Shown: positions 11,520-55,341, numbered from the stretch's first letter. The stretch is 59,873 nt of DNA from Deltaproteobacteria bacterium (GCA_016792665.1 JAEUKJ010000541.1:1-59873), one strand, 5' to 3'. The notes: generated from the sequence alone by a model not told the origin. Program-made: numbers and translations.

Positions 11520-11555
11520 GAGCCGAGCTGCCCAACGGCCGGCCCAACGGCTTGA

Positions 11556-33219: not shown

Positions 33220-33370
33220 ACTCCGCCCAGGCCGACCGCGCTCTGGCGCCATGCGGCCGCCTCGCAGTATCCGCCTCGACCCCCCCCAACTCATCTTGAC
33301 CCGCGGCTATCCACACCCGCCAAGGCCGAGTTGCGCCCAGGGTCCGCCGTGCGCCACCCAGCGCGCTAGG

Positions 33371-33432
33371 TCCGTCGCGACCTTCCCTCGGAGGGGGCGT
33401 AGTTCGTCGCGACCTTCCGTCGGAGGGGGCGT
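33371..33432 (+). repeat. Imperfect direct repeat (2 copies of a 30-bp unit, 32-bp period) downstream of the transposase-like gene
   Basis: tccgtcgcgaccttccctcggagggggcgt (33371..33400) and ttcgtcgcgaccttccgtcggagggggcgt (33403..33432). Confidence 0.85.
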
Positions 33433-33499
33433 GGCGGCACGCCGAAGCACCGGAAAACGACGGCTTGTCTCCAGGGCCAAAGGCTCGCATGATGCCGCC

Positions 33500-35068: not shown

Positions 35069-35125
35069 ACGTGCCACTTCCGAGACTCCGTCACACCGAC
35101 CTTCGATCGTCCCCAAGGTGTCCTC

Positions 35126-36349
35126 ATGAGAACCGTCGTCTTCGTCGCGCCGCTCTTTCGCGAGGGCAGTAACCGCTTCCTCCGCGCCTTCGCCCAGGTC
35201 CCCGACGTGCGCCTCGGCGTCATCTCGATGGAGCCCGCGGCCGCCATCCCGGCCGACCTGCGCGAGACCCTGCACGCGCACTACCAGGTCCGCGACGCCA
35301 TGGACGCCAAGGAGATCGAGCGCGGCGTGCGCGGCCTCGCCCCGATGATGGGGGGCCACATCGACCGCCTCGTCGCCCACCTCGAGGAGCTCCAGATCGC
35401 CACCGCCGACGCGCGCGAGCACCTCGGCATCGACGGCATGCACGGCCTCGCCGCGCGCAACTTCCGCGAGAAGGACCGCATGAAGGCCGTGCTGCGCAAA
35501 CACGGCGTGCCGGTCGCGCGCAGTCGCCTCCTCGCCTCGGAGCCGGCCGTCCGCCGCTTTGCCGCCGAGGTCGGCCTGCCCATCGTCGTGAAGCCCCCGG
35601 CCGGACTCGGCGCCCGCTCGACCTTCCGCGTCGCGACCCAGGCCGACCTCGACGCCCTCTTGAAGACGCGCCCGCCCTCGGCCAGCGACCCCTACCAGGC
35701 CGAGGAGTACGTCGACGGCTGGGAGAGCACCTGCGAGACGGTGACCATCGACGGGCAGCACGTCTGGCGCTCGGGCACCCACTACCTGCCCGGCCCGCTC
35801 GAGGTCCTCGAGAACCCCTGGATGCAGTACTGCGTCCTCCTCCCGCGCGACGAGGGCGAGAAGCACTTCCGCGAGTTCGACGCCGTCAACGGCGCCGCCC
35901 TCGACGCCCTCGGCATGAAGACCGGCCTCTCCCACATGGAGTGGTTCCGCCGCACCGGCGGCTCGGTCCTCGTCAACGAGGTCGGCGCCCGCCCGCCCGG
36001 CGCCAACATCATGCCGCTCATGAGCGAGGCCTACGGCTGCGACATGTGGGCGAAGTGGGCCGAGCTCATGTCCCACGATCGCTTCGTCGCACCCACCCGC
36101 CAGTTCGCGGCCGGCACCGCGTTCTTCCGCGGCCAGGGACAAGGCAAGGTCAAGGCGGTCCACGGCCTCGCCGAGGCCCAGGCCGAGGTCGGCGAGTACG
36201 TCGTCGACCGCAAGCTGCCGGTCGTCGGCCAGCCCAAGTCGTCCAGCTACGAGGGCGAGGGCTGGGCCGTCGTCAAGCACCCCGACACGGCCGTCGTCAT
36301 GCGCGCCCTCAAGCGCCTGGTCGAGCTCGTGAAGATCGAATATGCCTGA
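35126..36349 (+). CDS. ATP-grasp domain protein (carboxylate-amine ligase-like)
   Basis: ORF 35126..36349. The ATP-grasp pattern is REKDRMKAVLRKHGVPVA..GLPIVVKPPAGLGARSTFRV..AEEYVDG..MEWF..VNEVGARPPG. Confidence 0.75.
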   Translation: MRTVVFVAPLFREGSNRFLRAFAQVPDVRLGVISMEPAAAIPADLRETLHAHYQVRDAMDAKEIERGVRGLAPMMGGHIDRLVAHLEELQIATADAREHLGIDGMHGLAARNFREKDRMKAVLRKHGVPVARSRLLASEPAVRRFAAEVGLPIVVKPPAGLGARSTFRVATQADLDALLKTRPPSASDPYQAEEYVDGWESTCETVTIDGQHVWRSGTHYLPGPLEVLENPWMQYCVLLPRDEGEKHFREFDAVNGAALDALGMKTGLSHMEWFRRTGGSVLVNEVGARPPGANIMPLMSEAYGCDMWAKWAELMSHDRFVAPTRQFAAGTAFFRGQGQGKVKAVHGLAEAQAEVGEYVVDRKLPVVGQPKSSSYEGEGWAVVKHPDTAVVMRALKRLVELVKIEYA

Positions 36350-36887
36350 GTCTGCCGCGCTGGCCATCCGGCCCGTGACGCCCGCGGACGTGCCCGTGCT
36401 CTTGCGTCTCGTGCGCGACCTCGCCGCGTACGAGCAGCTCGAGCACGAGGTCACAGCGACCGTCGACGACTACCAGCGCGCCCTCTTCGCGGGTGATGCC
36501 TCCGCACGCGTCGCCCACGCCGCCCTCGCCGAGCTCGATCACCAGCCCATCGGCTACATGGTCTGGTTCCGATCGTTCTCGACCTTCAAGGCGCGCTCGA
36601 AGCTCTACCTCGAAGACCTCTACGTCGCACCCGAGTACCGCGGCCGCGGCTTCGGCACGGCCATGCTCGCCCACCTCGCGGCGCTGTGCCACGCCGAAGG
36701 GCTCGCCCGCATGCAGTGGCAGGTGCTCGACTGGAACGCGCCGTCCATCGCCTTCTACCGGTCGCTCGGCGCCGACGTGAGCTCGCACTGGTGGGACTGC
36801 TCCCTCGCAGGCGACGCCCTCGCCGCGCTCGCGGCCCGCGCCACGCACGACGCTTCGCGCGTCACCCCTCCAGGAGACGGCACATGA
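36342..36887 (+). CDS. GNAT-family N-acetyltransferase
   Basis: Overlaps the ATP-grasp gene by 8 nt. GNAT motif A is LEDLYVAPEYRGRGFGTAMLAHL, with ..FYRSLGA downstream. Confidence 0.85.
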   Translation: MPESAALAIRPVTPADVPVLLRLVRDLAAYEQLEHEVTATVDDYQRALFAGDASARVAHAALAELDHQPIGYMVWFRSFSTFKARSKLYLEDLYVAPEYRGRGFGTAMLAHLAALCHAEGLARMQWQVLDWNAPSIAFYRSLGADVSSHWWDCSLAGDALAALAARATHDASRVTPPGDGT

Positions 36888-37489: not shown

Positions 37490-39595
37490 TCAGGGTCGCG
37501 CCTCGCGCAGCAGCGCCTCCCAGCCGCGCACGAAGGCCTCCATGCTCGCGGCCTCGGTCCCGAACCCCTCGCCGGAGAACAGGTCCGGGTGAACCTTGGC
37601 CCACGCGCGGAGCTTCTTCGCCAGCGCGGCCAGGACATCCTCGCCGAGCGCCAGCGCGCCCCTCAGGTTGCGCGCCACGCCATCGAGCCAGCCGAGCGGG
37701 TCGAAGCCCTCGGACGTGGGGGTCGCCGTGCCGACCTCGACGCCCGCCTCGAGGGCCTCCAGGACCGCGAGGTACGCATCACTCGAGAGGCTGCGTCGCC
37801 CGGTCGATTCCTGTGCGAGCGCGACGCCCGCCCCCACGTCCGCCTCGCCGAAGATGACGCGCAGCGCGGGCGCCATGACGTGGGGCAGTCCCGCCCGGAA
37901 GAGGACCGTGTCGATCGCCCGTCCCGCCGCGAACAGCCAGTGCTCGCTCAGCGGATAGATCGCGGGCCAGTCGTGTTCGTGGATCCCCTCGCGATGCGCG
38001 ATGACCCGCACGGCCCGCCGCGCGGCCTCGTTGGCGCTCTCCATCGAGGCGAGGTCGGTGTACGTGCGCACGTAGTCCGCCGCGATGAGGAGGTTTCGGG
38101 CCCGCGTCTCGGCGAGAGGACGCAGGTTGAAGGACCCGCGCGGGTGTACGAGCAGCGGCGTCTCGTTCTTGAAGTGCCCCGCGACGATCTGCATCTCGCT
38201 GCAGAGGTGCGACGCGATGAGCAGGTCGCCGCGCATGTCGATGACGTTGCCGTCGACGTCCTCGGTCCCGTGCAGCGCATCGACCAGCTCGCGCCAGACT
38301 TCTTCCAGCACGGCCTCGCGACTGCCGAGCTGGCGCGCCGTCTTGCCCTGGTGCGGACCGTCGGGGATCACCGTGTCCCAGTCCGAGACGACGACCGACA
38401 AGACCCCCTGGAGGTCCGGGATCCCGAAGCTCGCGAAGTCCGCCTCGGTCCAGAACTGCCGCTGCGAGATCGAGGTCAGCGCCAACGGCGTCATCGGGTA
38501 GGCGATGTGCCCCTTGCACACGCGGATATCGCGACGCAGGAAGAACTGCGCGCCGACCATGTCGCGCACCGTGCCATCGAGGTGCGGGGAGGCGATGTTG
38601 GCGAAGGCCTGGTCGAAGTCGAGGAGTTGCTTGCCCCCGGCCGACCGCAGGTGCTTCCGGACGACCTCGATCGGGACCGCGAGGACGTAGTAGTCGGCCT
38701 CGATCTCATGCGCTGCACCCGCCGCATCGGCAAGCGTCGCGCCGGTCACGACCCCCTGGTCGACGTCCAGCGCGAAGCCGTCCCAGTGCTGCCCGTAGTG
38801 GATTGCGACCCCTTCGGCCGCGAGGTGCTCGGTCCATGGCTCGAGCCACGAGAGGTCGGTCGGCGCCGGCAGGACAGCGTCGATGCGCTGGTTGCGCGCC
38901 GAGTTGAAGTTGAAGAGGACCTGCAGCGAGGTGTTGCCGATGGTGCGCGAGCTGCCCTCGTGCGCCTTCATCGCCGACAGGTTGCCGGGGATGGCCAGCA
39001 ACAGGTCGCGCGTGCGGTCCGAGTAGAAGCCGCGCTTGGCCCCGATGAAGTCATCCCAACCGACCGTGTCGTACTCGTAGAGGCGACGCTCATAGGAAGA
39101 GGTCAAGAACTGGAGGAGCACCAGCGAGTACGCGGCGAGCTCGCGCGGTTGGAGGCGCAGGTTCGCCATCGTCTGCCGCGCCGCGTCGAGGACGCTGTCG
39201 GCACTCGTGGCCGGCCGCTCGATGAGGGTCAGGGTGTGCTCGAGCGCGACCCCGCCGCGGTTGCTCGGGTTGAGCTCGGCCCCGACGCTCGACACCGTGC
39301 CGTCCGAGCGCCGGTAGGGCGTCGTCTGCATCGTCTCGATGACGTGGCTGTAGAAGGCCGGGAAGAAGCGAAAGCCGTGCTCGCCCGGCCACGTGCCGCC
39401 CCCGGGTCGATGCTCGAGCTGGCTGCGCGCCTTGCCGCCCAGCGCGTCCCGGGCCTCGTAGATGCGGATGTCGAAGGCCTGGCCGCTGCGCTTGCCGAGC
39501 TCGACCAGCTCGTGCGCAGCGCTCATGCCGCCGATGCCGCCGCCCAGGATGGCGATGCGAATGGGTGCGGAAGAGGGCTGAAGGTCGTTGGTCAT
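37490..39595 (-). CDS. Large FAD-dependent amine-oxidase / phytoene-desaturase-superfamily oxidoreductase (701 aa)
   Basis: Internal ATG 39595 of ORF 37490..39673 (MTNDLQ..). The dinucleotide-binding motif is IAILGGGIGGMSAAHEL..YEARDALGGK..GEHGFRFFP. An extra C-terminal segment of about 130 aa is present. The start overlaps the upstream stop (ATGA). Confidence 0.8.
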   Translation of the reverse strand: MTNDLQPSSAPIRIAILGGGIGGMSAAHELVELGKRSGQAFDIRIYEARDALGGKARSQLEHRPGGGTWPGEHGFRFFPAFYSHVIETMQTTPYRRSDGTVSSVGAELNPSNRGGVALEHTLTLIERPATSADSVLDAARQTMANLRLQPRELAAYSLVLLQFLTSSYERRLYEYDTVGWDDFIGAKRGFYSDRTRDLLLAIPGNLSAMKAHEGSSRTIGNTSLQVLFNFNSARNQRIDAVLPAPTDLSWLEPWTEHLAAEGVAIHYGQHWDGFALDVDQGVVTGATLADAAGAAHEIEADYYVLAVPIEVVRKHLRSAGGKQLLDFDQAFANIASPHLDGTVRDMVGAQFFLRRDIRVCKGHIAYPMTPLALTSISQRQFWTEADFASFGIPDLQGVLSVVVSDWDTVIPDGPHQGKTARQLGSREAVLEEVWRELVDALHGTEDVDGNVIDMRGDLLIASHLCSEMQIVAGHFKNETPLLVHPRGSFNLRPLAETRARNLLIAADYVRTYTDLASMESANEAARRAVRVIAHREGIHEHDWPAIYPLSEHWLFAAGRAIDTVLFRAGLPHVMAPALRVIFGEADVGAGVALAQESTGRRSLSSDAYLAVLEALEAGVEVGTATPTSEGFDPLGWLDGVARNLRGALALGEDVLAALAKKLRAWAKVHPDLFSGEGFGTEAASMEAFVRGWEALLREARP

Positions 39596-40674
39596 CGGGG
39601 CCTCGCGAGAGAGATTTCGGTCATGGCGCGACCCGTCACGGCCTGGCCATCGAGGGTGCCGGACGCGGTGCACGCGCCCTCCCAGAAGGTCGGGACGCCC
39701 GGGATGAGGGTCGAGACGAGCTGATCCTCGAACACCGGGCGAATCGTGAGCTCGAGGGTCATCTTGCCGGACGCGTCGAAGTTCCGGATGCGCGTGTGGG
39801 TCCGGTAGGGCGTGCGACTCAGCGGCGGGGTGAAGCCGCGCGTCTCGTCGTCGACGATCTCCAGACCCTTGAACTCCTCGACCTCTCCGCGAGAGAGGCG
39901 CGCGCCGAAGACCTTCTCGTTCAGGGCCTTGGGATGCTTCACGCGAAAGAAGATCAGTCGCCTTCCATCATCGAGCTGCACGGGGATGTACTTCCACGTG
40001 AACGCGCGCACGTCGGCCGCGCCCCACTGCCGCTCCATCCAGGCCGTGCCGGTGACCGCCTCGTCGCGGCCGGCCACGCGCGCCGTGCCGGTCACCGTGA
40101 GATCGGGCCGCGCGTAGTAGGCGAGCGTCTCGCCGCCGCCGTAGTCGACGATGCCGCGCTCGCCGAGCAGTGCTGCGCGCGCGTGCGTCTCGAGGCGCAG
40201 GTCGAGTCCGTGCTCGCCATCGATCTTCAGGCGATAGCCGTCGCGACGCCCCACGATCTCGCTGGCGACCGACCAGCTCGGCCCTTCGCCGATCCCCGGC
40301 AGCTGCGCGCCGAAGCGGAACGCGATGCGGGTCGGATCGGTCGAGCCTTCGTAGCTGTGTGCCAACGACTGCACGCGCACGAAGTGCGGCGAGAGACGTG
40401 CGCCACCCTGCCAGTCGATGCGCTTGGTGATGCCGGCGACCACGTCGACACCCAGTACGCGCTGGCGCAGCACGACGGCCAGGAAGCTCAGCCGCCGGCC
40501 GCTCGCGGTGTCGAGGTGTCCCTTGTAGTACCACCACTCCGACGGGTCGCGATGCGCGGTCTCGTCCTCGGGGAGGACCACGGCGCCGAGCGTCGGGCCG
40601 CCCTGCTCCATCCTGGGGAGGTCACGTTCGAGGCCGAGGCCGGCGGGTGGCGTGAGGAGGTCGAAGGAGAACAT
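39592..40674 (-). CDS. AttH / CrtC (hydroxyneurosporene-synthase)-like lipocalin-fold protein
   Basis: Internal ATG 40674 of ORF 39592..41514. The motif DPSEWWYYKGHL.., followed by ..TGTAWMERQWG, is typical of the AttH/CrtC family. No signal peptide is evident. Confidence 0.7.
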   Translation of the reverse strand: MFSFDLLTPPAGLGLERDLPRMEQGGPTLGAVVLPEDETAHRDPSEWWYYKGHLDTASGRRLSFLAVVLRQRVLGVDVVAGITKRIDWQGGARLSPHFVRVQSLAHSYEGSTDPTRIAFRFGAQLPGIGEGPSWSVASEIVGRRDGYRLKIDGEHGLDLRLETHARAALLGERGIVDYGGGETLAYYARPDLTVTGTARVAGRDEAVTGTAWMERQWGAADVRAFTWKYIPVQLDDGRRLIFFRVKHPKALNEKVFGARLSRGEVEEFKGLEIVDDETRGFTPPLSRTPYRTHTRIRNFDASGKMTLELTIRPVFEDQLVSTLIPGVPTFWEGACTASGTLDGQAVTGRAMTEISLARPR

Positions 40675-40676
40675 GG

Positions 40677-41645
40677 TCAGGGTCCTTGCAGGATGGCGTC
40701 GAGGCGCGCGTTGACGACGTCGATGTGGATGCCTTCGTTGTAGTGGCCGGGCCGGCCCGCGTGGTGGACTGCGACCGGGCGCCACATCAGGTCGACCACC
40801 AGCCCGCCCGAGGACCCGTCCTCGGTGTGCGCCGAGTAGCGGACGTAGATGCCGTCCACCGCGAGGACCTCGCCCTTGAAGAGCGAGACCTGCTTCGCGC
40901 CGCCCTTGGGGTGCTGGATGACCATGACCCGGTCCCCCACCTTGGGGCGCCCCGCGGGGCGCAGGCGGACGGCGCCGAAGCGCTCGCGCAACGCAGTCAC
41001 GCGCTCGGCGGGGAGGGCGACGAAGGCCAGGTCTTCCGGCTGCGCGCCTGCCCAGCGTCGCGGTGAGGGCCCGAGCGGCTCGACCTCCACGCGCGTGTCG
41101 TCGGTGCTCGCCGCGTAGGTGCGGAACTCGCAGTTCGTGTTCTCGGCCTCCTCGTTCGAGGCGATGACGTGCTCGTTGGTCACGATGAGGCCGCCCGTCG
41201 GCCCGCCCAGCGCCAGGAAGCCGGTGCCCTTCTTGGCGGCCTGGAAGTTCGAGAGCAGGCAGACGGCATCCACCGCGTTCTTGCCGTGCGCGAACCAGAT
41301 CGCGTCGACGAGCTCGGGGGTGTCGTCGATCTTGGCCTCGAGCCGGAGCTCTCCCTCGTTCAAGCGATCGGCGAGCTGCGCGTATTGCGCGACGCGCCCG
41401 ACGTCGAGATCGAGGTTGCGCCAGCCCGGATGGCGCGGGTGCTGATGCACCGCCTTCTGGAGCACGCGCTCCCACGTGGCCTCGTCGGCGCGCTGCGCGA
41501 CCGCGAACCAACACCCCTGCGAGTCGTGCCCCTGGACCTCTTCCTTGAGAGTGCCGGTTGCGTCCGCACGCTCGAGCGCGGCCTCGACCTTGCCGCGGGT
41601 CTCGTACAGCGTAGCGAGGGTGTCGATCGCAGGGTCTCGAGACAT
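40677..41645 (-). CDS. Cytoplasmic trypsin-like serine peptidase with an uncharacterised N-terminal roughly 120-aa domain
   Basis: Internal ATG 41645 of ORF 40677..41690 (MSRDPAID..). There is no signal peptide. The triad candidates are LIVTNEHV (His), EDLAFVAL (Asp) and TEDGSSGG (Ser). The stop codon lies 2 nt before the AttH-like start. Confidence 0.75.
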   Translation of the reverse strand: MSRDPAIDTLATLYETRGKVEAALERADATGTLKEEVQGHDSQGCWFAVAQRADEATWERVLQKAVHQHPRHPGWRNLDLDVGRVAQYAQLADRLNEGELRLEAKIDDTPELVDAIWFAHGKNAVDAVCLLSNFQAAKKGTGFLALGGPTGGLIVTNEHVIASNEEAENTNCEFRTYAASTDDTRVEVEPLGPSPRRWAGAQPEDLAFVALPAERVTALRERFGAVRLRPAGRPKVGDRVMVIQHPKGGAKQVSLFKGEVLAVDGIYVRYSAHTEDGSSGGLVVDLMWRPVAVHHAGRPGHYNEGIHIDVVNARLDAILQGP

Positions 41646-41781
41646 GCGTGCCTCACGAGTCGGGGGACGTCGGTGGCGAACGCAGGGCACTTCCGCTGAA
41701 GCCCTGGCGAGCCGACGCCCATGGACCTACTCAGTGGCGCGAGATTGGCTGACCGTTTCGCGAACTTACGCGAACCCGCGA

Positions 41782-41804
41782 GCACCTGGCTCCGCGGCAG
41801 GTGC
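41782..41804 (-). terminator. Candidate hairpin immediately after the STAND-kinase stop codon
   Basis: gcacctg-(9 nt)-caggtgc gives a 7-bp stem that abuts the stop codon at 41805..41807. Confidence 0.35.
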
Positions 41805-44800
41805 TCAGCGATCCCAGGGCAAAAAGATTCGGTGACCGGGCAGCGATGCGAGGTCTCGGCGCTCGCGCAACGCGAAGGAGAGTTGCTCGAGGTGGGCTTG
41901 TCCGGTCGAGGCGAAGGCCCGGTTCGCGAGCCCGGCTTGCCTCTGGCACTGCGCGTCATCGCCTGCGAGTCGCGCGCGCGCGGCGTCGAGGAACGAGGCA
42001 TAGGCCGTGGCGTAGGCCGGGCCCTCTTTGCGGAGGGCGCGGATCTGTCGACCCAGGTCCTGTACGGCCGCGCGTGCCTCGTCCTGGCCCGACGCAGCAG
42101 CGGCAAGCGCGGCGCGCGCCCGGAGCCAACGGGCCTCGATGCGGAAGTAGCGCATGCGCAGGAAGAAGATCTTCCGCAGCGAAGACCAACCCTCACACAT
42201 GCGCTTCCACGCGCCGACCCCGTCGCCCCGGCTCAGCGCGAGGTTCGTCTGCGCGAAGAGATCGAAGTAGTGCGGGGTCTGGAACGGCTCGGCAGGGAAC
42301 GCGGCGATCGCGTCCTGGGCCCGCGCGGCGGCCTCCTCGGCGCGACCGGCGACGAGCCATACGAGGTTCGAGCGACCGCTCGAGAGAGCCGCGCGCGCGC
42401 TGCGATCGCCGCGTGCTTCGGCGGCCTCGATGGCGGGCAGGAGCTCTTCCTCCAGCATCGTGAAGTCGCCGAGGTGGGTCGCCGCCCAGGTCCGATACAT
42501 GAGGCAGTTCCATGCCTCCCAGGTGCCGCGCCCCTGGTTCTCGACCAGCAGCGCCTCGGCGCGATGCGAGGTCGCGATGGCTTCCCGCCAGCGCCCCGCG
42601 AAGACCTCGGCCGCGGACAGGCACAGCGTGTAGAAGCCGCGCGCCGCGCCGTCACCGCTCTCCTCGGCCAACGCGCCGGCCTGCGCCATGAAGCGCTTGA
42701 CCCGCGTACCGTCGATGGGCGCCCCCTCGGCGACGCGGTAGACGAACTCGGTGCTGAGCCCGCGCACGGCACGCGCGCGGTCGCCCGACTTCAGGGCCAG
42801 GCGGAGGTGGCGCGTCTGGAAGGCGGCCGAGCGCATGATGTCGAGGTGGTTCAGGCCGAGGGTCGCCGACCAGCACGCGTCGACGCGCGCCAGGACCTCG
42901 GGATCGGGCGGGCCCGCGGACGGGGTGAAGGGCGTGCCGCGGACATCGACCTTGATGCGACCCCAGAGCACGGTCACGAGCGCCGCGACCATCGAGCTCG
43001 GGAAGCCGAGCCCCCGGTCTCTCAGGACCTCGCGCAGCCGGCTCTCGCCGCGCACCGAGTCGCCCGAGCGCAACCATTGGTCGGCGGCGTCGCGCCGTGC
43101 GCTGGCGGCCTGCGCCGGGTCGCTGGTGCGCTGGGTGATCTCGTCATACATGCGCGCCGCTTCTTCGCTGCGCCCCGACAGCGCCAGGGCACTCGCGGCC
43201 TGCACGAGCAGCGGCAGCGCTCGCGTCGGGTCCGTCTCCAGCGCGGCGAGGTAGAGCCGGCTCGCCTGATCGAAAGCGAGCTGTCTCCGCGCACGCTCGG
43301 CCGAGGCCAGGAGCAGCTCCCGCACCTCGCTCGGATCGGAGACACCGGCCTGCTCGAGGTGCTTCGCGATGAGCGCCGGGTCGACGTCGAGGCGATGGGT
43401 CAGCGTCTCGGCGATGCGCGCGTGCAGGGCCGCTCGTCGCGGTGCCGCGATGAAGCTCTGGGCCGCCTCGGCCACGCGCTGGTGATACAGTTGGACGCGC
43501 GGCGGCTCGTCGGGGCTCGGTGCCAGGAGGCGCGTCGCGAGCAGCCGGCGGATGGCGTTGACCCCTTCGCGCGGGTCATCGCAGGTCAGCGCGACCAGAT
43601 CGGACAGCGGCATCGGGTGCTCGGCGACGCTCGCGATGTCGATGGCCGCGCGCTCGATCGCAGGCAGCGTGTCGAGGCGCTTCTCGATGAGGGCCTCCCA
43701 CGATGTCGGGATCCCGCCCGCGAGGGCGTCGGCCGCGAGGTCATGGGCAAAGAGCGGCAGGCCTCCCGAGATGTCGAGGACCTGGGTGGCGGTCCGGTCG
43801 GCGATGTCCGTGGCCCCCAGCTCGCGGAGCAGCGCGCGGATGTCCGCCTCTCCCCACGGAGAGAGCGCGATGATCGCATCGGCATGTGCCGCGAGCTGCC
43901 GCTCGATGCGCTTGGCGACCGCCTCGTAGAGCGGCTCGGACCGGAGCGCGAGCACCACGAGGAGGTTCGGGCAGGCACCGCGCATGGTCAGCGCCGCCAG
44001 CACGCGCAGGCTGTCCTGGTCGCACCACTGGGCGTCGTCGATGACCAGCACGACCCTCCCGAGGTGCCCGACGATCGCCGTCAGGCTCTCGAAGGCGCGT
44101 CGCTGGACCTCCTGGACCTCGCGCGCCACGCGCGCCTCTCGCGCCCGCCAGGCGGTCACGCGAGAGAACGTCGGGAACACCGTGAAGAGGTCCGCGAGGT
44201 GCGGCACCTCGAGGGCCGAGACCTCGTCGGTCGTGCGCCGCGCGAGGTCCGCGGCGAGCTCGTCGAGGATGCGGTCCACGCCGCGATAGGCGACCGCCTC
44301 GGCGAAGTGGCACTGCCCGAAGAAGACGCGCGCGCCGTGGACGTGCTCGGCGCGCCGGGCGAACTCGCGGAGGAGGAACGACTTGCCGATGCCCGAGGGG
44401 CCCTTGACGATCAGCGCACCCGGGCGTGGGCCGTGGGCGTCGGGCAGCGCGCGCTCGAGCCGTGCGACGAACGCGTCGCGCCCGATGAACGGGAACGCGT
44501 CGCTGAATGGGTCGCTCGCGCGCGGCTCGGTCGCGGGGTCGACGGCGGGCCCGGCCGATCCCCAGGGACGCGGGGCTTGGCGCGAGCTCGGGTCGGGGTC
44601 GAGCAGGTCCTCGATGAGCAACGCCAGCCACGGCGGGACCTCGGGCACCAACGTGTCGACGCGCGGCGGGTAGCGGCGCTCGAAGAGCTCGAGGTGCGAA
44701 TAGGCGGGTCGCCCCGTGAGCACGAGGAAGAGGGTCGCACCCAGCGCGTACCAGTCGCCGAGCGGGGTCAGCGGCTCTCCGCGCGCGAGCTCGGGGGACA

Positions 44801-45320
44801 TCAACGAGGGCGTTCCGCGGAAGTTTCCGAGCGCCTCGTGGGCGCTTCGCGACGCGTCGCGCGACAGGCCGAAGTCGACGAGCTTCACGGTCCCGTCGAC
44901 GCGCACCAGGATGTTGGCGGGCTTCAGGTCGCCGTGGAGGACGCCCGCGCCATGCATCGCGTGCACGCCGTCGATGATGCGCGGCAAGACGGCGAGCAGC
45001 CGCGAGACGCGCACGGCCGGCTCGGCGTCGGGGTCGATGTAGGTCGCGAGGTCGAGCCCGTCGACCAACTCCATCGTGAAGAAGGCCCGGTCGTCGCGGA
45101 CCTCGAGCTCGTGGAAGACGACCACGTTCGGGCTGTTGACGGACACCAGCGTGCGGAACTCTTTCTTGAGCTCGCTCGTGTCGGTGTCGCGCGCGATCGC
45201 GAAGGTCTTCAGCGCGACGTAGCAACCCATGGCGCGATCGAAGACCTGGTAGACGACGCCTTCGGAACCGGTTCCGATGAGGGTGGCCTGCTGGTAGCGA
45301 TCGCCAAAGTCGACGGACAT
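41805..45320 (-). CDS. Ser/Thr protein kinase fused to a STAND/AAA+ NTPase and a helical (TPR-like) repeat region (1171 aa)
   Basis: Internal ATG 45320 of ORF 41805..45608 (MSVDFGDRYQQATLIGTGSEGVVY). Kinase motifs present: VALKTF, HGDLKPANILV (non-RD), DFG, GTPSLMSPE. Walker A is GPSGIGKS and Walker B is VLVIDDAQW. A helical tail of roughly 600 aa follows. Confidence 0.9.
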   Translation of the reverse strand: MSVDFGDRYQQATLIGTGSEGVVYQVFDRAMGCYVALKTFAIARDTDTSELKKEFRTLVSVNSPNVVVFHELEVRDDRAFFTMELVDGLDLATYIDPDAEPAVRVSRLLAVLPRIIDGVHAMHGAGVLHGDLKPANILVRVDGTVKLVDFGLSRDASRSAHEALGNFRGTPSLMSPELARGEPLTPLGDWYALGATLFLVLTGRPAYSHLELFERRYPPRVDTLVPEVPPWLALLIEDLLDPDPSSRQAPRPWGSAGPAVDPATEPRASDPFSDAFPFIGRDAFVARLERALPDAHGPRPGALIVKGPSGIGKSFLLREFARRAEHVHGARVFFGQCHFAEAVAYRGVDRILDELAADLARRTTDEVSALEVPHLADLFTVFPTFSRVTAWRAREARVAREVQEVQRRAFESLTAIVGHLGRVVLVIDDAQWCDQDSLRVLAALTMRGACPNLLVVLALRSEPLYEAVAKRIERQLAAHADAIIALSPWGEADIRALLRELGATDIADRTATQVLDISGGLPLFAHDLAADALAGGIPTSWEALIEKRLDTLPAIERAAIDIASVAEHPMPLSDLVALTCDDPREGVNAIRRLLATRLLAPSPDEPPRVQLYHQRVAEAAQSFIAAPRRAALHARIAETLTHRLDVDPALIAKHLEQAGVSDPSEVRELLLASAERARRQLAFDQASRLYLAALETDPTRALPLLVQAASALALSGRSEEAARMYDEITQRTSDPAQAASARRDAADQWLRSGDSVRGESRLREVLRDRGLGFPSSMVAALVTVLWGRIKVDVRGTPFTPSAGPPDPEVLARVDACWSATLGLNHLDIMRSAAFQTRHLRLALKSGDRARAVRGLSTEFVYRVAEGAPIDGTRVKRFMAQAGALAEESGDGAARGFYTLCLSAAEVFAGRWREAIATSHRAEALLVENQGRGTWEAWNCLMYRTWAATHLGDFTMLEEELLPAIEAAEARGDRSARAALSSGRSNLVWLVAGRAEEAAARAQDAIAAFPAEPFQTPHYFDLFAQTNLALSRGDGVGAWKRMCEGWSSLRKIFFLRMRYFRIEARWLRARAALAAAASGQDEARAAVQDLGRQIRALRKEGPAYATAYASFLDAARARLAGDDAQCQRQAGLANRAFASTGQAHLEQLSFALRERRDLASLPGHRIFLPWDR

Positions 45321-45366: not shown

Positions 45367-46548
45367 TCAGCGCAAGGTCGCCAGTGCCTCGATGAGGCGC
45401 GCGACGTCGTCGAGGTCGCTGTGCAGGTGGATGGCGATGCGCAGCACGCGCTGCCCGGCGGCGGGCCATGGGAAGATCGGGAGCTCGACGCGATGCTCGC
45501 GAAAGAGGCGCGTGTGCAGCGCCATCGCATCCAGCTCGGGCGCGAGGTCGGGCGGCAGTGGGAACGACGCGAGCGACCCGAGGAGCGCATCGTCCGCGGG
45601 CGCCGCAATCTGCAGCGCCGTTGCGATACGGTCGCGGGCCAGCACGGTGAGGTCGTGGTTGCGCTTGCGGATGCCTGCCCAGCCTTGGGGATCGAGCGAC
45701 GCGATGAACGCCACCGCGTCCGGCCAGGTGAGGTACGGACTCGGGTCGCTCGTGCCGGTCCAGTCGTGCTCGGCGCGAAAGCGCGACTGACCCGGGGCCA
45801 GCGGTGCGGTCAGCCCGTGCGAGATGACCAGCGGGTGGAAGCCGTCGCGCCGCGCCGCATGCACCCAGAGGAGGGCCGCGCCCTTGGCGGCGCAGGGCCA
45901 CTTGTGCCCGTTGGCGGCGTAGTAGGTCAGGCCCAGGGTCGCCAGGTGATCGATGTCCACGTCGACCATGCCCGGCGCGTGGGCACCATCGATCAAGACC
46001 TCGATCCCGCGCGCGGCGAAGTGCGGCAAGAGTGCTTCCAGCGGGAAGACGAGGCCTGTCGGACTGGTGACGTGGTCCAGCATGACGAGGCGCGTGCGCT
46101 CGGTCACGGCGGCAAGGACCGACGCGACGATCGCCTCGGCCGTGGTCCCGGGAAAGGGGATGTGCGCGGTGACGACGCGCGCGCCGCTGCGCTGGGCCGC
46201 GAGCGCGAACGCGTTCTTGCACGCGCCGTAGGCATGGTCGGTGACGAGCAGCTCGTCGCCCGGGCCGAAGGTCGCGTTGGCGAGCACCGTCGCGACGCCG
46301 CTCGAGGCATTGGGCACGAAGACCAGGCCCTCGGGGTCGGCGTGGATCCAGTCCGCCACCTGGCGCCGCGCCTCGGTCAGGGCCACCGGCAGGAAGCGCG
46401 CGAAGAAGTCGACGGGGTTCGCCTCCATGCGCGCGCGCAGCCGCGCCTGGGCCTCCAGCACGACGCGCGGGGTGGCCCCGAAGCTGCCGTGGTTCAAGAA
46501 GGCGAGGTCGGGGTCGAGCTGCCAGTGATGCCGCCAGGGAGTGCTCAT
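45367..46548 (-). CDS. Class-V PLP-dependent aminotransferase (isopenicillin-N-epimerase / cysteine-desulfurase-like)
   Basis: N-terminus LNHGSFGATP. The PLP-Lys motif is YAANGHKW. Also contains DGAHAPG. Confidence 0.8.
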   Translation of the reverse strand: MSTPWRHHWQLDPDLAFLNHGSFGATPRVVLEAQARLRARMEANPVDFFARFLPVALTEARRQVADWIHADPEGLVFVPNASSGVATVLANATFGPGDELLVTDHAYGACKNAFALAAQRSGARVVTAHIPFPGTTAEAIVASVLAAVTERTRLVMLDHVTSPTGLVFPLEALLPHFAARGIEVLIDGAHAPGMVDVDIDHLATLGLTYYAANGHKWPCAAKGAALLWVHAARRDGFHPLVISHGLTAPLAPGQSRFRAEHDWTGTSDPSPYLTWPDAVAFIASLDPQGWAGIRKRNHDLTVLARDRIATALQIAAPADDALLGSLASFPLPPDLAPELDAMALHTRLFREHRVELPIFPWPAAGQRVLRIAIHLHSDLDDVARLIEALATLR

Positions 46549-46979
46549 CGCGATGGGCTCGGGGGCTCGGGTGGCAAGGCGTAGGTCACCGACGCGTGCG
46601 CGACCGGGCGCGGGTCATCGGCGAGTGCCAGCGTCACGCGCCCCACGGCCAGCGTCCTCCCGAGCTTCAAGAGCTCGGCCTTGGCCGTGATGGGGCGCGG
46701 CTCGGGGCGGCGCAGGAAGTCGATGTGCAGGCTGGTCGTGACCGCCAAGGCGATCGGGCCGAGCTTCGCCAGGAGCAGGAAGTACATCGCCGTGTCGGCC
46801 AGCGTCATCAGGACCGGACCCGAGATGGTGCCGCCAGGTCGCAGGTGCGAGTCGTCCACCGCGAGGCCGATGGTCACCGAGTCGTCGACCAGGGGGCCTA
46901 TCTCGAGCGGCCACTCGAGGGCCTGGGGAAAGCGCTCGGCCAGGAAGCGGCGGATTCCGTCGGGGTCGAGTCCGGGCAT
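46545..46979 (-). CDS. PaaI-family hotdog-fold thioesterase
   Basis: Contains HLRPGGTISGPVLMTLADTA and ..AKAELLKLGRTLAVG. Overlaps the downstream gene by 4 nt. Confidence 0.75.
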   Translation of the reverse strand: MPGLDPDGIRRFLAERFPQALEWPLEIGPLVDDSVTIGLAVDDSHLRPGGTISGPVLMTLADTAMYFLLLAKLGPIALAVTTSLHIDFLRRPEPRPITAKAELLKLGRTLAVGRVTLALADDPRPVAHASVTYALPPEPPSPSR

Positions 46980-47000: not shown

Positions 47001-48089
47001 TCAGGTGAGCGCAGGCAGGGCCGCGAGCGCGCGCCGCATCTCGAGGGCGCTCGGGAAGCGCTCGAGCGGGTTCTTCGCGAGGGCGCGCTGGAGGAAGTGC
47101 TGCCACGGGGCCAGCGCGTCGCGGTCGTAGGTCGTCCCGTGGTCCTCGCGCGGCACGAGCGTCTCGGCGAGCGCCGGCATCGGGTCGCGGAGATGCGCCG
47201 CGTAGAGCTCGTGTCGGTCCACGCCGCGAAAGGGCAGGCGTCCCGTCATGAGGTGGAAGAGCATGATGCCGACCGCGTAGAGGTCGACGCGGAGGTCGAG
47301 GGCCTGGCCCAGCACCTGCTCGGGCGCCATGTACTCGGGGGTGCCGAGGATGCGCAGCGGCTGGGTCACGCGCATGGCGCGCTCGCGCTCGATGTTGATG
47401 ACGCCCTCGGGCGTGGTCGCGCTGTCGGCCAGGCGCGCGATGCCGAAGTCGAGGAGCTTCAGCACGAAGGGGTCGTCGTCGACCGCCGTCACGAAGAGGT
47501 TGGCCGGCTTCACGTCGCGGTGGATGTAGCCCTTGCGATGGACGTGCTCCAGGGCGGCGAGGGTCTGGAGGCAGGCCGAGCGGGCCTGCTCGGGCGTGAA
47601 GCCGCGGGTGAAGAAGCGCGCGAGCGGGGCGCCCTCGAGGCGGTCCATGACGAGGAAGTGCTCGAACCCCTCGGGGCCCATCGTCTCGCCGTAATCATGG
47701 AGGGCCACGATGTTCGGGTGCGACATCTTGGCCATGACGATGGCGCCGCGACGGAAGCGGGTCTCGGCCTCCTCGTCGTTGGCGCGCATGAGCTTCACGG
47801 CGACCTTGCGGTGGAGCGTCAGCTGCTCGGCCTCCCAGATGACGCCCATCGCGCCGCGGCCCAGGGGACGGCGGAAGCGATACCGATGCGCGAGCACTTC
47901 GCCCGTGCGGTCCGGGAGGACCTCGATGCCGTCCTTGATGCAGGGTGCGGCGGTCGGAAAGGTCGTCCGGCAGCGGGGGCAGAGGTAGCGAATGGGTTTG
48001 GGGAGATCGGTGACCGTGTCACGCAAGGCGCCACCACTATCGAAGGGTCGATGAGAGAACGCAACCCCTTCCGGCCGTCCGTGGCTCAA
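47001..48089 (-). CDS. Ser/Thr protein kinase with an N-terminal CxxC zinc-ribbon-like motif
   Basis: TTG start, forming a TTGA overlap with the gloB stop. The N-terminal motif is YLCPRCRTTFPTAAPC. Kinase motifs present: GRGAMGVIW, VAVKLM, HRDVKPANLF, DFG, GTPEYMAPE. Confidence 0.85.
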   Translation of the reverse strand: MSHGRPEGVAFSHRPFDSGGALRDTVTDLPKPIRYLCPRCRTTFPTAAPCIKDGIEVLPDRTGEVLAHRYRFRRPLGRGAMGVIWEAEQLTLHRKVAVKLMRANDEEAETRFRRGAIVMAKMSHPNIVALHDYGETMGPEGFEHFLVMDRLEGAPLARFFTRGFTPEQARSACLQTLAALEHVHRKGYIHRDVKPANLFVTAVDDDPFVLKLLDFGIARLADSATTPEGVINIERERAMRVTQPLRILGTPEYMAPEQVLGQALDLRVDLYAVGIMLFHLMTGRLPFRGVDRHELYAAHLRDPMPALAETLVPREDHGTTYDRDALAPWQHFLQRALAKNPLERFPSALEMRRALAALPALT

Positions 48090-48961
48090 CCCTCGCGATA
48101 GCGCTTCAGGTCCTTCAGGCGGCGCGTGGCGGTGAAGATCTCCAGAGCGGTCGTCAGCGGCAGATCCGGCAGCGCGCGGGCGACCGACGCGACGAGCTCG
48201 GGCGCGTGCGTGCGCAGGAACGGGTTGGTGTCGAGCTCGACCGCGAGGCGCTCGGGTACGGTGGCGCGCCCTTCGCGACGCACGCTGGCGACACGGGCGA
48301 CACGCTCGCGCAGTGCGAGGTTGCCGGGCTCGAGCGAGAGCGCGAAGCGGAGGTTGTCCTCGGTGTACTCGTGGGCGCAGAAGATCCAGGTCTCGGGGGG
48401 CAGCGCGGCGAGGCGGGCGAGCCCTTCGTGCATGGCCGCGGGAGGGCCCGTGAAGAGGTAGCCACAGCCGCCGGTGAAGAGGCTGTCGCCGGTGAAGGCG
48501 AGGTCTTCGAAGACGAACGAGACGTGCCCCGCGAGGTGTCCCTCGGTCGTGAGGACGCGCCCCTCGTGTCCCGCGAAGGTGATCGTCTGGCCGCCCTCGA
48601 CCCCCTGGGTCAGGCCCGGGACCTGGGCTGCCACCGCGGCCGGGCCGACGATGGTGAGGGCCCCGGGAATGCTCGGGTCCGGGGCGCCGAGCGCGACGAG
48701 CTCGGGTGTGCGCTCGAGGAGGCCGCGGTTGATGCCGATGTGATCGGGGTGGGTGTGGGTGTTCAGGACGGTCGTCAGGCGCACCCCGAGCTCGCGGCAG
48801 GCCTTCAACACCGAGGTCGCCTCGGGACCGTCGATGCCCGCGGCTTCGTCGCCCGCGACCAGCAGCCAGCCGAGGTTGTCCTTGGCCATCGGGACGGCGT
48901 GCACCGCGAGCCTTCCCGAGCGCGACACGGTCGGGGGCGATAGGGTCGTGACGACATGCAT
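48086..48961 (-). CDS. gloB: Hydroxyacylglutathione hydrolase (glyoxalase II)
   Basis: Contains AKDNLGWLLV. Metal-binding motif is THTHPDH, followed by ..TEGHLAGHVSF..FTGDSLFTGGCG..CAHEYT..NPFLR. Confidence 0.85.
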   Translation of the reverse strand: MHVVTTLSPPTVSRSGRLAVHAVPMAKDNLGWLLVAGDEAAGIDGPEATSVLKACRELGVRLTTVLNTHTHPDHIGINRGLLERTPELVALGAPDPSIPGALTIVGPAAVAAQVPGLTQGVEGGQTITFAGHEGRVLTTEGHLAGHVSFVFEDLAFTGDSLFTGGCGYLFTGPPAAMHEGLARLAALPPETWIFCAHEYTEDNLRFALSLEPGNLALRERVARVASVRREGRATVPERLAVELDTNPFLRTHAPELVASVARALPDLPLTTALEIFTATRRLKDLKRYREG

Positions 48962-49659: not shown

Positions 49660-52600
49660 ATGGTCGACGAGGTGACAGACGAGGTCTTCGGGCCGGCGAC
49701 CGCGGCCTGGTTCGCGCGCGCCTTCGGCACGCCCACGCGGGTGCAGGCCGAGGGGTGGCGAGCCATCGCGCGCGGGGACGACGCCCTGCTCATCGCGCCG
49801 ACCGGATCGGGCAAGACGCTGGCCGCCTTCCTGGTCGCGATCGATCGCATCGGCAGCGTCGTGCGTGCCGAGCGTGCCACGCGTCCTGGGCGCGCCGTGG
49901 CGTCCAAGGTCGATCGCCTCGCGTCGGTCGATGCCCCGACCGAGGGCTGGCGCGCGATCTACGTCTCGCCGCTGAAGGCCCTGGTCTACGACGTCGAGCG
50001 CAACCTCTCCGCGCCACTCCGCGGCATCGAGACCGTGGCCGCCCAGCTCGGCCTGGCCTTCGGTACGCTGCGCGTCGATGTGCGCACGGGCGACACCAGC
50101 CAGCGCGATCGGAAGCGTCAGGTCGATGCCCCGGGCGACATCCTCGTGACCACGCCCGAGTCCTTGTACCTCCTCCTCACGTCGGAGGCGCGGCGCAACC
50201 TGCGCACGGTCGAGACGCTCATCATCGATGAGATCCACGCCCTCGCGCCGACCAAGCGCGGGGCACATCTCATGCTCTCGGTCGAGCGCATGGCGGCCCT
50301 GCGCGGTGAGGCCGGGCTCCAGCGCATCGGGCTCTCGGCGACGGTGCGGCCCGCGGAGGAGGTCGCGCGCTTCCTGTCGGGGGCGCGTGCTTGCGCCATC
50401 GTGGACACGGCCGCGCCGCCGCGCCTCGAGCTCGAGATCGTCGTCCCGGTGGACGACATGACCAAGCCCTGGCTCGAGCTGGCGGTGGCCCCCGGGGCCG
50501 AGACCGCGCGACCCTCGGGCTCGCTCCTGGCGATCGCGCGGCACGAGCGCGGCGAGCGCGCGGACAAGGTCGCGGACAAAGCTGCGGCCAAACAGGATCT
50601 CTCGCCCGAGCAACGCGCGAGCTTGTGGCCGGCCATCGAGCCGAAGATCCTGGAGCTCGTCCTCGAGCATCGCTCGACCATCGTCTTCGTGAACTCGCGC
50701 GGTCTGGCCGAGCGGCTCGCGCAGCGCCTGAACGAGCTCGCGGCCGAGCTCGGCGTGGCCCCGCCCGGTGGCCTCGTGCGGGCGCATCATGGATCGGTGG
50801 CGCATGCCCAGCGGCGCGAGATCGAAGAGCTCCTGAAGGCCGGCGAGCTGAGGGCCATCGTCGCGACCAGCTCGCTCGAGCTCGGCATCGACATGGGCGC
50901 GGTCGAGCTCGTCATCCAGGTCGAGTCGCCGGACTCGTCGGCGCGCGGGCTCCAGCGCGTCGGGCGCGCGGGCCATCAGGTCGGCGGCGTCTCGCGCGGC
51001 CGCATCTTCCCGAAGCATCGCAACGACCTGCTCGAGGCCGCGGTCGTCTCGCGCATGATGATCGAGGGGCGCATCGAGTCGGTGAGCGTGCCGAAGAACG
51101 CGCTCGACGTGCTGGCCCAGCAGGTCGTTGCGATGTGCGCGATGGAGCCCTGGGCGCGAAAGGACATGTTGGCGCTGGTGCGGCGCGCGAGCTCGTATCG
51201 CGACCTGAGCGACGAGGTCTTCGACGCCGTGCTCGAGATGCTGACGGGTCGCTTTCCCTCGAGCGAGGTCGCCGATCTGCGCCCGCGCCTCGAGTGGGAC
51301 CGCAGCCTCGACGTCCTCACCGCCCGCAAGGGCGCGCGCCTCCTGGCGGTCGTCAACGGCGGGACCATCCCCGATCGCGGCCTCTACGGCGTCTTCACCC
51401 AGGGCGAGGGCGGCAAGGCGAGTCGCGTCGGCGAGCTCGACGAGGAGATGGTCCACGAGGCGCGCGTCGGCGAGACCTTCATGCTCGGGGCCTCGACCTG
51501 GCGCATCCAGGAGATCACGCGCGACCGCGTGATGGTGACGCCGGCCCCGGGCGAGCCCGGCAAGATGCCGTTCTGGCACGGCGATGGACCCGGCCGCCCC
51601 ATCGAGACCGGCCGCGAGCTCGGGGCCTTCGTGCGCCAGGTCGGCGAGCTCGAACCAGACGCTGCCGACCGCCTCCTGGCGGCGCGCTACCCCCTGGATG
51701 CGAAGGCGCGCAAGAACCTCATCCGCCACCTGGCCGACCAGCGCGAGGCGACCGGCCTCTTGCCGAGCGACCGTACGATCGTCGTCGAGCGCTTCCGCGA
51801 CGAGCTCGGCGACTACCGCGTCTGTATCCTCACGCCCTTCGGGGCGCGCGTGCACGCACCCTGGGCGCTGGCCATCGAAGAGACCATCGGCCGCCGCGCC
51901 GGCATGGAAGTCCAGACCCTGTACACGGACGATGGCATCGCGCTGCGCTTTGCCGACCAGGGCGCGGGCACGGGCGCAACCCCCGACGAGACCCGCCGCG
52001 CCCCAGGCTGGAGTGAGCTCTGGGTCGAGCCGAGCGAGGTCGAGGAGCTCCTGGTCGAGCGGCTCTCGACCGCGGCGGTCTTCTCGTCGGTCTTCCGTGA
52101 GAGCGCGGCGCGCGCGCTGCTCCTGCCGCGGCGCAGTCCGGACGGTCGCGCCCCGCTCTGGCAGCAGCGGCTCCGCGCGCAGAACCTCTTGTCGGCGGTG
52201 CGGCAGTTCGCGGGCTTTCCGATCGTGCTCGAGACCTATCGCACCTGCCTCCAGGACATCTTCGATGTGCCGGCCCTGGTCGGCCTGCTCCAGGCGATCG
52301 AGCGCCGCGAGGTGCGCGTCCACGAGGTCGAGACGCGCGCGGCCTCGCCGTTCTCGCGGTCCTTGGCCTTCGCCTACGTCGCTTCGTACATGTACGAGGT
52401 CGACAACCCCGTGGCCGAGCGGCGGGCCCAGGCGCTCTCGCTGGACCGCAACCTCTTGCGCGAGCTCCTGGGTCAGGACGAGCTCCGCTCGGTCCTCTCG
52501 ACCGAGGTCCTGGACGAGGTCGAGGCCGAGCTGCAGTGCCTCATCCCGCCCTACCAGGCGACCGATGCCGATCGGCTCCACGATGTCCTGCGCCGCGTCG

Positions 52601-55339: not shown

Positions 55340-55341
55340 GC

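Follow-up and report, generated by a model that had tools for sequence, protein, structure and literature searches.

A non-RD kinase-STAND protein, an EAD1-like trypsin-fold protease and an AttH/oxidase gene pair in a deltaproteobacterial contig: hints of a regulated death or defence module

Introduction

The contig analysed here, JAEUKJ010000541.1 of a Deltaproteobacteria bacterium (GCA_016792665.1, positions 1-59873), is referred to over its full length as the window. On its minus strand it carries an array of four genes, which encode a kinase-STAND protein (K), a trypsin-fold protease (T), an AttH-like protein (A) and a flavin oxidase (O). A preliminary description, made from the sequence alone, had taken K and T for a candidate novel system of the conflict or programmed-death kind. 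Our comparisons do not support the pairing of K and T as a two-gene system, and they point to the A/O pair, missed in this role by the preliminary description, as the conserved partner of the subfamily of HGD kinase-STAND proteins to which K belongs.

Results

Layout of the four-gene array

The genes of the window, which has a G+C content of 71%, were called from codon-position G+C. K, T, A and O follow each other on one strand:

41805-45320, minus strand: K, HGD kinase, AAA_16 STAND NTPase and TPR-like solenoid, 1171 amino acids (aa), from Pfam and an AlphaFold2 (AF2) model
41646-41804, minus strand: spacer between K and T, 159 nucleotides (nt)
40677-41645, minus strand: T, EAD1-like N-terminal domain and trypsin fold, 322 aa, from Pfam, PDB profiles and Foldseek
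39592-40674, minus strand: A, AttH-like putative isoprenoid/lipid double-bond hydratase, from Pfam and orthologues
37490-39595, minus strand: O, flavin amine-oxidase/phytoene-desaturase-like protein, 701 aa, from Pfam

The junction between T and A reads TGA-CC-ATG, which bears out the earlier statement that the protease gene is packed 2 nt from the AttH-like/oxidase pair, and the stop codon of A and the start codon of O overlap as ATGA. By their spacing, T, A and O are shown as a predicted, tightly coupled three-cistron operon, with K outside that coupling.

In the spacer, the preliminary description had pointed to a hairpin, a palindrome and direct repeats, with the caveat that K and the protease operon may be transcribed independently. 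All of these elements are present: the hairpin comprises 9 bp with the stop codon of K counted (41780-41806), the palindrome TTCGCGAA lies at 41757-41764, and CGCGAAC (GTTCGCG on the minus strand) occurs twice, at 41759-41765 and 41769-41775. They are, however, neither enriched nor unusually folded. CGCGAAC was found 20 times in the window against 25.7 expected occurrences, and the spacer has no folding advantage over shuffled sequence (z = -0.37); both the repeats and the fold are at chance level. The spacer has no T-tract, a scan of the spacer found no sigma-70-like or sigma-54-like site in the right orientation, and promoter, terminator, Rfam and tRNA scans of it returned nothing informative. 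The caveat itself was sound, with T coupled to A and O, and K set apart by hairpin and spacer.

K, a non-RD kinase joined to a STAND module and a repeat sensor

The following parts were assigned to K:

44577-45296, minus strand: kinase domain, residues 9-248 (Pkinase, E 1e-39)
44913-44936, minus strand: catalytic loop HGDLKPAN
43455-44477, minus strand: nucleotide-binding oligomerisation module (NOD) of nucleotide-binding domain (NBD), helical domain (HD) and winged-helix domain (WHD), residues 282-622 (AAA_16, model)
44379-44402, minus strand: Walker A motif GPSGIGKS
44025-44051, minus strand: Walker B motif VLVIDDAQW
41823-43445, minus strand: C-terminal TPR-like alpha-solenoid sensor region, residues 626-1166 (TPR profile matches, model)

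The three parts which had been read from the sequence, namely an HGD (non-RD) Hanks kinase, a P-loop STAND module and a long helical sensor-like region, were recovered by profiles and by the model. The kinase keeps K38, E54, H129, D131, N136 and D149-F-G, and its sole catalytic change is the replacement of the arginine of HRD by Gly130, at a position where arginine accounts for at least 90% in 26 homologues. AAA_16 matches residues 277-456 (Pfam, E 2.2e-21), NACHT stays under its cutoff (25.4 bits, cutoff 26.7), and both STAND signatures, Walker A as GxxxxGK[ST] and Walker B as hhhhDD, are found in K. The AF2 model (mean predicted local confidence, pLDDT, 84.4; predicted template modelling score, pTM, 0.72; 26-sequence alignment) opens with the kinase and a disordered linker (253-275). 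Next come a P-loop NBD, in which helices flank five parallel strands (301-485), then the helical bundle at 507-566 and, at 572-622, a winged helix that bears a beta-hairpin; residues 626-1166 make up a solenoid of 540 residues. The modelled domain order is the STAND layout of NBD, HD and WHD followed by a repeat sensor. The solenoid matches consensus TPR proteins in a PDB profile search, and against PDB sequences K gives TPR matches and one weak NB-ARC match. Among the matches listed by Foldseek for the model there are kinases only, and the NOD was thus not placed by this search.

The architecture of K is shared by at least 92 proteins, the majority of them from Myxococcota, Acidobacteriota and related metagenome-assembled genomes (MAGs), with identities of at most 35%. 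PknK-type kinases are members of the MalT STAND subfamily according to the MalT literature, and together with these proteins this identifies the kinase-STAND fusion as a known kind. K resembles the PknK/MalT-type STANDs in its N-terminal Ser/Thr kinase output, its AAA_16 NOD (NBD, HD, WHD) and its long TPR-like sensor, and its weaker homologues (E 1e-11 to 1e-14, one of them named MalT by JGI) likewise swap the kinase for the DNA-binding outputs GerE or BTAD. It differs from them in its non-RD loop (HGD), in its fixed genomic partnership with the AttH/oxidase pair and at sequence level, where PDB searches gave no match from K to the chains of the solved MalT and PH0952 structures.

T, a trypsin-fold protease with a marginal EAD1 domain

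T consists of two domains:

41412-41624, minus strand: EAD1-like helical adaptor domain, residues 8-78 (Pfam PF19955)
40767-41228, minus strand: Trypsin_2 catalytic domain with H159/D205/S279

Its likely start is the ATG at 41645, which is preceded by GAGG and gives 322 aa, while a GTG at 41690 would yield 337 aa. The catalytic domain is matched by Trypsin_2 (Pfam, E 1e-20), and the triad H159/D205/S279 is invariant in the alignment of the family. SplA, V8 and the exfoliative toxins are its matches among PDB profiles, and Foldseek aligns the model with DegS, V8 and Esp at probability 1.0. Profiles and model together identify T as an S1 chymotrypsin-fold serine peptidase of the V8/Spl/HtrA type. 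The N-terminus contains no hydrophobic stretch, consistent with the signal-less, cytoplasmic protease that had been described.

The N-terminal domain had been called helical, unassigned and possibly an adaptor. A helical, adaptor-like character is retained, and the domain is no longer unassigned: EAD1 (PF19955; EAD, effector-associated domain) scores 25.9 bits against a gathering threshold of 24.2 (E 1.4e-5), and the Pfam annotation already available for P0001, an identical protein, lists the same family. A local EAD1 hidden Markov model (HMM) built from 11 relatives with the window sequence excluded gave only 7.3 bits (E 0.006), and a phmmer search of the N-terminal 125 aa against 1.84 billion representatives returned the query itself and repeat-like noise. 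The AF2 model of the domain is a helical bundle with pLDDT of about 70-79. Architecture and model agree with EAD1, and the assignment is marginal.

Relatives of T are few, 8 among 5.8 billion proteins, and all combine EAD1 or EAD8 with a trypsin domain. The protease domain is closest to EAD8-trypsin proteins (39-40% identity), which adjoin NACHT-FGE-sulfatase STANDs; such a STAND stands beside the relatives at L003-L006, and a second EAD1 gene beside those at L001, L002, L095 and L110. By these affinities T probably derives from a clade of conflict-system proteases, in keeping with the conflict or death-type look which the protease had been credited with. EADs have been proposed to link effectors, through homotypic pairing, with the NTPase components of a core; the second EAD copy is usually found in an adjacent gene, and further copies are often encoded elsewhere, their presence correlating with that of a cognate EAD in one of the core components (Kaur et al. 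2020, PMC7159879).

Two of the contexts deserve a description of their own. At L001/L002:8223-14366 the EAD1-trypsin gene adjoins genes for a 221-aa EAD1 protein and for two proteins of 171 and 687 aa without a Pfam match, with a PhdYeFM/ParE toxin-antitoxin pair immediately upstream and, in L002, a phage-integrase fragment, which suggests a mobile context. At L095:167-5514 the EAD1-trypsin gene is convergent with that of a 1433-aa protein which has an EAD1 at its N-terminus as well as HEAT repeats; the window has nothing like this textbook EAD pairing.

A and O, a putative lipid-modifying enzyme pair

A is matched by the CrtC N-terminal lipocalin domain PF07143 (E 5e-20) and by Lipocalin_9, PF17186 (E 2e-10), and its EWWY motif is invariant in the alignment. 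It shares 26.5% identity with AttH from the Agrobacterium plasmid pAt, and a plasmid collection searched with A contained only distant Agrobacterium and Variovorax AttH proteins. On these family matches A is a member of the AttH/CrtC hydratase family and a putative hydratase. Its identity is 53% to the protein of L173 and 33-36% to those of L175, L176, L013 and L174. The N-terminal extension of A in the protease-bearing lineages was considered as a propeptide and rejected, as the alignment shows an ordinary variable N-terminus with canonical LPxDE..H..EWWY.

O carries Amino_oxidase and NAD_binding_8 domains (Pfam), has more than 1692 homologues of the phytoene-desaturase/amine-oxidase type, and ends in a C-terminal extension of about 110 aa. 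Identity with the O of L173 is 56%, and with the homologues in L013, L174, L175 and L176 it is 38-40%. Some homologues of O are fused to DUF5995 and measure about 833 aa.

Proteins of the AttH family hydrate isoprenoid double bonds, as known for CrtC, kievitone hydratase and the archaeal hydroxy-GDGT (glycerol dialkyl glycerol tetraether) synthase, and the gene of the latter overlaps a desaturase gene in archaea (bioRxiv 10.1101/2025.10.20.683597). By analogy, the most economical inference is that A and O act as hydratase and desaturase on an isoprenoid or lipid chain. The pair resembles carotenoid CrtC/CrtD and archaeal Hgs/Ted (bioRxiv 10.1101/2025.10.20.683597) in the overlap of an AttH/CrtC-fold gene with a gene of the desaturase type, and loci of one lineage described below add a B12-radical-SAM protein and a PEMT-like methyltransferase. 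It is unlike them in that O is a flavin amine-oxidase/phytoene-desaturase-like protein with the C-terminal extension, and we found no earlier case of such an operon with a protease or a kinase-STAND protein.

A conserved K-A-O neighbourhood with a variable position between K and A

K-A-O loci are known from six contigs, all of them metagenome or MAG contigs, which fall into three lineages of two:

Lineage 1 (window, L173): EAD1-like trypsin, A and O
Lineage 2 (L175, L176): K, TIR-nSTAND1-WD40, Peptidase_C14, A and O on one strand
Lineage 3 (L013, L174): B12-radical-SAM, A and O, convergent with K; no protease

Two samples of 80 loci each were compared, the one taken around K homologues (80 genome loci, 1.28 Mb, scanned by tblastn and HMM) and the other around homologues of the protease (80 metagenome loci). 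A homologue of O lies directly downstream of K at 5 of the 80 K-family loci, including the three best matches, and at none of the 80 protease-family loci, which served as control; at L013, A is present too, besides K and O. Sampling from the side of O, where contexts had enough flank, showed K adjacent in L174, L175 and L176 and not in L177. The HGD loop follows the same pattern: all four AttH-linked K proteins with a visible kinase domain (window, L013, L174, L176) have it, as against 0 of the 73 other K-family loci. In a neighbour-joining tree the K proteins of the window and L013 are sister taxa. L173 has the closest O, with A upstream, and the gene before A ends 2 nt ahead of it; the last 30 aa of this gene (VHHAGMSGQYNQGIHIDTV...) align with the C-terminus of T. 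In L176, the junctions between K and the TIR gene and between the TIR and caspase genes are both ATGA overlaps.

HGD-type K, A and O are thereby shown as a conserved neighbourhood in three lineages, as far as gene order and sequence relationship tell, and the position of T between K and A as a variable slot for death-type proteases. The TIR-STAND and caspase genes in the same slot of two sister loci would revive, in changed form, the idea of a system.

Identities for K, A and O and for the genes of the lineage 2 cassette are as follows:

K, within lineages: 56-62% identity
A, within lineages: 54-58% identity
O, within lineages: 57-66% identity
Caspase, L175 against L176: 54% identity
TIR-STAND, L175 against L176: 32% identity

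Of the parts of K, the solenoid has changed least within lineages, with 64-69% identity where the NOD has 45-57%. The TIR-STAND shows the reverse, its C-terminal sensor being the part that has changed most (28% against 50%). With its solenoid most conserved, K has the look of a sensor for a conserved cue and not for a fast-evolving invader.

Several features of these loci were recorded alongside. In L176:108-12001 and L175:1-11022, five genes from the HGD kinase-STAND through the oxidase form a same-strand operon, and the neighbours of the TIR-STAND gene keep 54-57% identity between the two loci. The two caspases end in a domain of about 140 aa without a Pfam match (L176:8470-8901, L175:7477-7926); its reading as a TIR domain, suggested by the TIR-like DVFLNYHPGD motif at its start, was dropped, as it found support neither in Pfam at E <=10 nor in BLAST against the neighbouring TIR. 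At L013:14724-17728 and L174:2-3344 the B12-binding radical-SAM gene precedes A and O; the C-terminal 120 aa of its product are 93% identical between the two loci, a much higher conservation than that of A, O or K. A PEMT-like methyltransferase gene precedes the radical-SAM gene in L013, and together these genes resemble a cluster for lipid tailoring. L007 and L046 (e.g. L007:7001-15735) combine an HRD kinase-STAND gene with a convergent oxidase homologue, followed by genes for DUF5995, a GAF-sigma54 activator and a stand-alone Peptidase_C14. At L177:5006-13716, the oxidase homologue occurs without K and is surrounded by genes for a PemK toxin, a Scabin-like ADP-ribosyltransferase and an Rce1-like protease, together with an FHA-sigma54 activator and a 530-aa Ser/Thr kinase.

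K and T are not found as a pair

A T-related protease or an EAD1 occurs at none of the 80 K-family loci, and a K-like STAND, AttH or oxidase gene at none of the 80 protease-family loci. Kinase-STAND homologues are hence not enriched beside this protease family, the very outcome which the preliminary description had named beforehand as speaking against its proposal; its self-contained kinase-STAND/protease pair is not supported, given these counts and the lack of an EAD1 in K. A core EAD module (vWA-MoxR-VMAP, GAP1 GTPase or EAD-bearing STAND) is absent from the Pfam annotation of essentially all genes of the window.

Comparison with defence-system catalogues, which had been suggested as a further check, lent the pair no support either. 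PADLOC-DB v2 matches K with generic kinase domains only (PD-T4-6, mad6), for which an unrelated neighbouring kinase scores higher, and finds no match in its STAND and sensor part; for T only the protease domain of RT-Protease is matched (E 7e-8). PADLOC and NCBIfam taken together gave generic kinase or protease matches only, none above curated cutoffs. K shares with the antiphage STANDs of the Avs/bNACHT type a tripartite build of N-terminal enzyme, STAND NTPase and C-terminal repeat sensor. It is unlike them in that its sensor is the most conserved region, PADLOC is blank outside the kinase domain, a defence island is lacking, and the output is a kinase and not a nuclease, protease, TIR or SIR2.

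Other genes of the window

Upstream of K, four genes form a tight co-directional string:

48086-48961, minus strand: GloB-like metallo-beta-lactamase
47001-48089, minus strand: ordinary RD Ser/Thr kinase
46545-46979, minus strand: PaaI thioesterase
45367-46548, minus strand: class-V aminotransferase

The kinase gene overlaps that of the GloB-like hydrolase by 4 nt, as does the aminotransferase gene that of the thioesterase, and 46 nt separate the aminotransferase gene from K. The string is not kept beside K at other loci. Altogether the window encodes three Ser/Thr kinases; the third (11556-12884, minus strand) lies two genes away from a PTP-type dual-specificity phosphatase of the 'Swiss Army Knife / polymorphic toxin' kind (PF22784, PF22785; minus-strand region 9683-12884). 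The plus-strand region 49660-56220 holds a full-length Lhr helicase of 1630 aa with all Lhr winged-helix domains and, directly after it, genes for a Sir2-family protein and a Fpg/Nei-type DNA glycosylase; an EndoIII-like HhH-GPD glycosylase is encoded at 58486-59148. A second, ordinary flavin amine oxidase (422 aa, 22141-23409) and a classical PF00089 trypsin (341 aa, 6559-7584), both on the minus strand, are unrelated to O and T at subfamily level. Open reading frames (ORFs) of 302, 522 and 451 aa with high G+C at third codon positions (GC3) and without a Pfam match lie in regions 32311-35068 and 24259-25614, and at 33074-36454 long ORFs overlap and strand assignment is ambiguous.

Discussion

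The reading that we prefer, tentatively and at somewhat less than an even chance, is that K, A and O form a core, with K as a STAND switch whose output is a kinase, and that T is attached to this core as a death-type effector. K would be the constant sensor and switch, its solenoid binding a conserved and probably endogenous cue tied to the lipid chemistry of A and O, which would desaturate and hydrate an isoprenoid or lipid chain. The ligand would open the NOD, ATP-dependent oligomerisation would bring the kinase domains together, and the kinase would then phosphorylate downstream targets; as it is non-RD, we propose that K needs no phosphorylation of the activation loop. T, expressed together with A and O, may be an effector protease of the death type, which the EAD1-like domain would dock to an activator or a substrate. 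Since K is devoid of an EAD1, any link from K to T should run via phosphorylation or a third protein and not via homotypic EAD pairing.

A wider claim is clearly doubtful, namely that K-A-O is the constant core of a hitherto undescribed lipid-linked programmed-death or immunity module of Myxococcota-type bacteria, with interchangeable executioner cassettes in one slot. K would then watch for a conserved cue, a lipid or membrane signal that A and O produce or use up, and, once activated, license the cassettes of the slot, i.e. the EAD1-trypsin here and TIR-nSTAND1-WD40 with the caspase elsewhere; T might act on A, on O or on the targets of their products.

A number of observations weigh against the reading that we prefer. 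The comparison draws on a small sample of six metagenome or MAG contigs, and that of L173 ends inside the T-like gene, so that K is not visible there. The core apparently works without T, as lineage 3 has no protease and its K is convergent with A and O, and the cassette of lineage 2 could be autonomous and merely inserted, as the caspase has its own STAND. A hairpin and 159 nt lie between K and T, which may not be co-transcribed. The EAD1 call on T is marginal, K itself does not score with EAD1 (HMM -0.5 bits, hhalign probability 0.3%), and a search of the 59.9-kb window in six frames with two local HMMs, phmmer and hhalign found no second EAD1. Finally, the neighbourhood consists of ordinary chromosomal genes, without a defence island in the Pfam annotation of essentially all genes of the window.

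Some of these observations would be expected if T were an orphan EAD1 effector in a permissive slot, with its cognate EAD1 core (NTPase, vWA or GAP1) encoded elsewhere in the genome. T and the TIR-STAND/caspase cassette would then have been inserted between K and A, and K would only regulate or answer the A-O pathway. We regard this as unlikely on balance, and yet as the most serious of the alternatives. Additional EAD copies do often lie apart from, and correlate with, a cognate core EAD (Kaur et al. 2020, PMC7159879), the partners next to relatives of T are an EAD1 gene or NACHT-FGE-sulfatase proteins, K has no EAD1 to offer, lineage 3 dispenses with a protease altogether and the lineage 2 cassette brings its own STAND. 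Yet two non-homologous death proteases share the position immediately 5' of AttH, the genes are coupled at short distance (2-nt gap, ATGA overlaps), and the adjacency of T and A has been kept while identity fell to about 56%; slot, coupling and adjacency together amount to more order than random insertion predicts. T also has a native-like GC3 of 0.92, and no mobile-element genes flank it.

That K and T by themselves make up a conflict system now appears improbable. In such a system, detection of an invader would lead the STAND to oligomerise and to recruit or activate the protease directly, so that the cell dies. The two genes are adjacent on one strand, STAND plus protease is a known logic, and the window offers no other NTPase partner for T; against this stand the co-occurrence of 0 of 80 in both directions, the missing EAD1 of K, a sensor which as the most conserved part of K is the opposite of an invader sensor, and the blank PADLOC result for the STAND and sensor part. 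In addition, the sister locus L013 retains K, A and O without T, and T is coupled to A and O, with hairpin and spacer after K. We give an equally small chance to a housekeeping role, in which T would serve A, O or their membrane environment in processing or quality control, its N-terminal domain would be no true EAD, and K would be one of the many signalling kinases of myxobacteria, with no part in conflict or death. The weak EAD1 evidence (25.9 against 24.2 bits, 7.3 bits with the independent HMM, no phmmer relatives), a chromosomal context rich in housekeeping genes and the three Ser/Thr kinases of the window would fit such a role. However, the protease domain of T groups with EAD-fused conflict proteases, the TIR, nSTAND1 and caspase in the slot of L175 and L176 are unmistakably parts of conflict systems, and a family with 8 homologues in 5.8 billion proteins is far rarer than a housekeeping protease.

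Set against described systems, T agrees with the EAD-coupled proteases (Kaur et al. 2020, PMC7159879; 2021, PMC8195603) in being a cytoplasmic protein of a small helical EAD1-like domain and a trypsin-fold peptidase, in its probable multicellular-type lineage and in relatives that adjoin EAD-bearing partners or STAND NTPases. It departs from them in that the 59.9 kb of the window contain no second EAD1, vWA-MoxR, GAP1 or EAD-STAND core, the adjoining STAND (K) carries no EAD1, and T is the first cistron of an AttH/oxidase operon, a link mentioned in neither of these papers. The lineage 2 cassette, with its TIR-nSTAND1-WD40 protein, Peptidase_C14 and fast-evolving sensor, is like the TIR/caspase nSTAND1 and AP-ATPase death systems (Kaur et al. 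2021, PMC8195603), but it is embedded in one operon between K and the AttH-oxidase genes, and TIR, nSTAND1 and caspase are all lacking in the window.

Taken as a whole, the locus gives a hint of a new module for regulated death or defence. Each of its probable parts is known, i.e. a PknK-type STAND kinase, an EAD-trypsin effector and an AttH/desaturase pair, and their combination is new to us. The terms AttH, lipocalin and oxidase do not appear in the surveys of Kaur et al. 2020 (PMC7159879) and 2021 (PMC8195603), and literature searches for K-A-O with a protease found no description. The kinase-STAND architecture by itself is of the known PknK/MalT type; the new combination is that of a non-RD kinase-STAND with the AttH/oxidase genes, together with trypsin or TIR-STAND plus caspase in a single slot.

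Should the link between T and the core prove unreal, the locus would illustrate that a STAND gene beside a protease gene is insufficient to call a system, and that the adaptor-domain rule and the conservation of the neighbourhood point elsewhere. If the K-A-O core with an exchangeable protease slot is a real functional unit, a lipid-modifying enzyme pair would be tied to the STAND, caspase and trypsin death machinery of social bacteria, a connection undescribed in the surveys of EADs and Death domains (PMC7159879, PMC8195603). Bacteria would also offer a case in which a STAND switch acts through a non-RD kinase, and the compact four-gene locus would be open to genetics.

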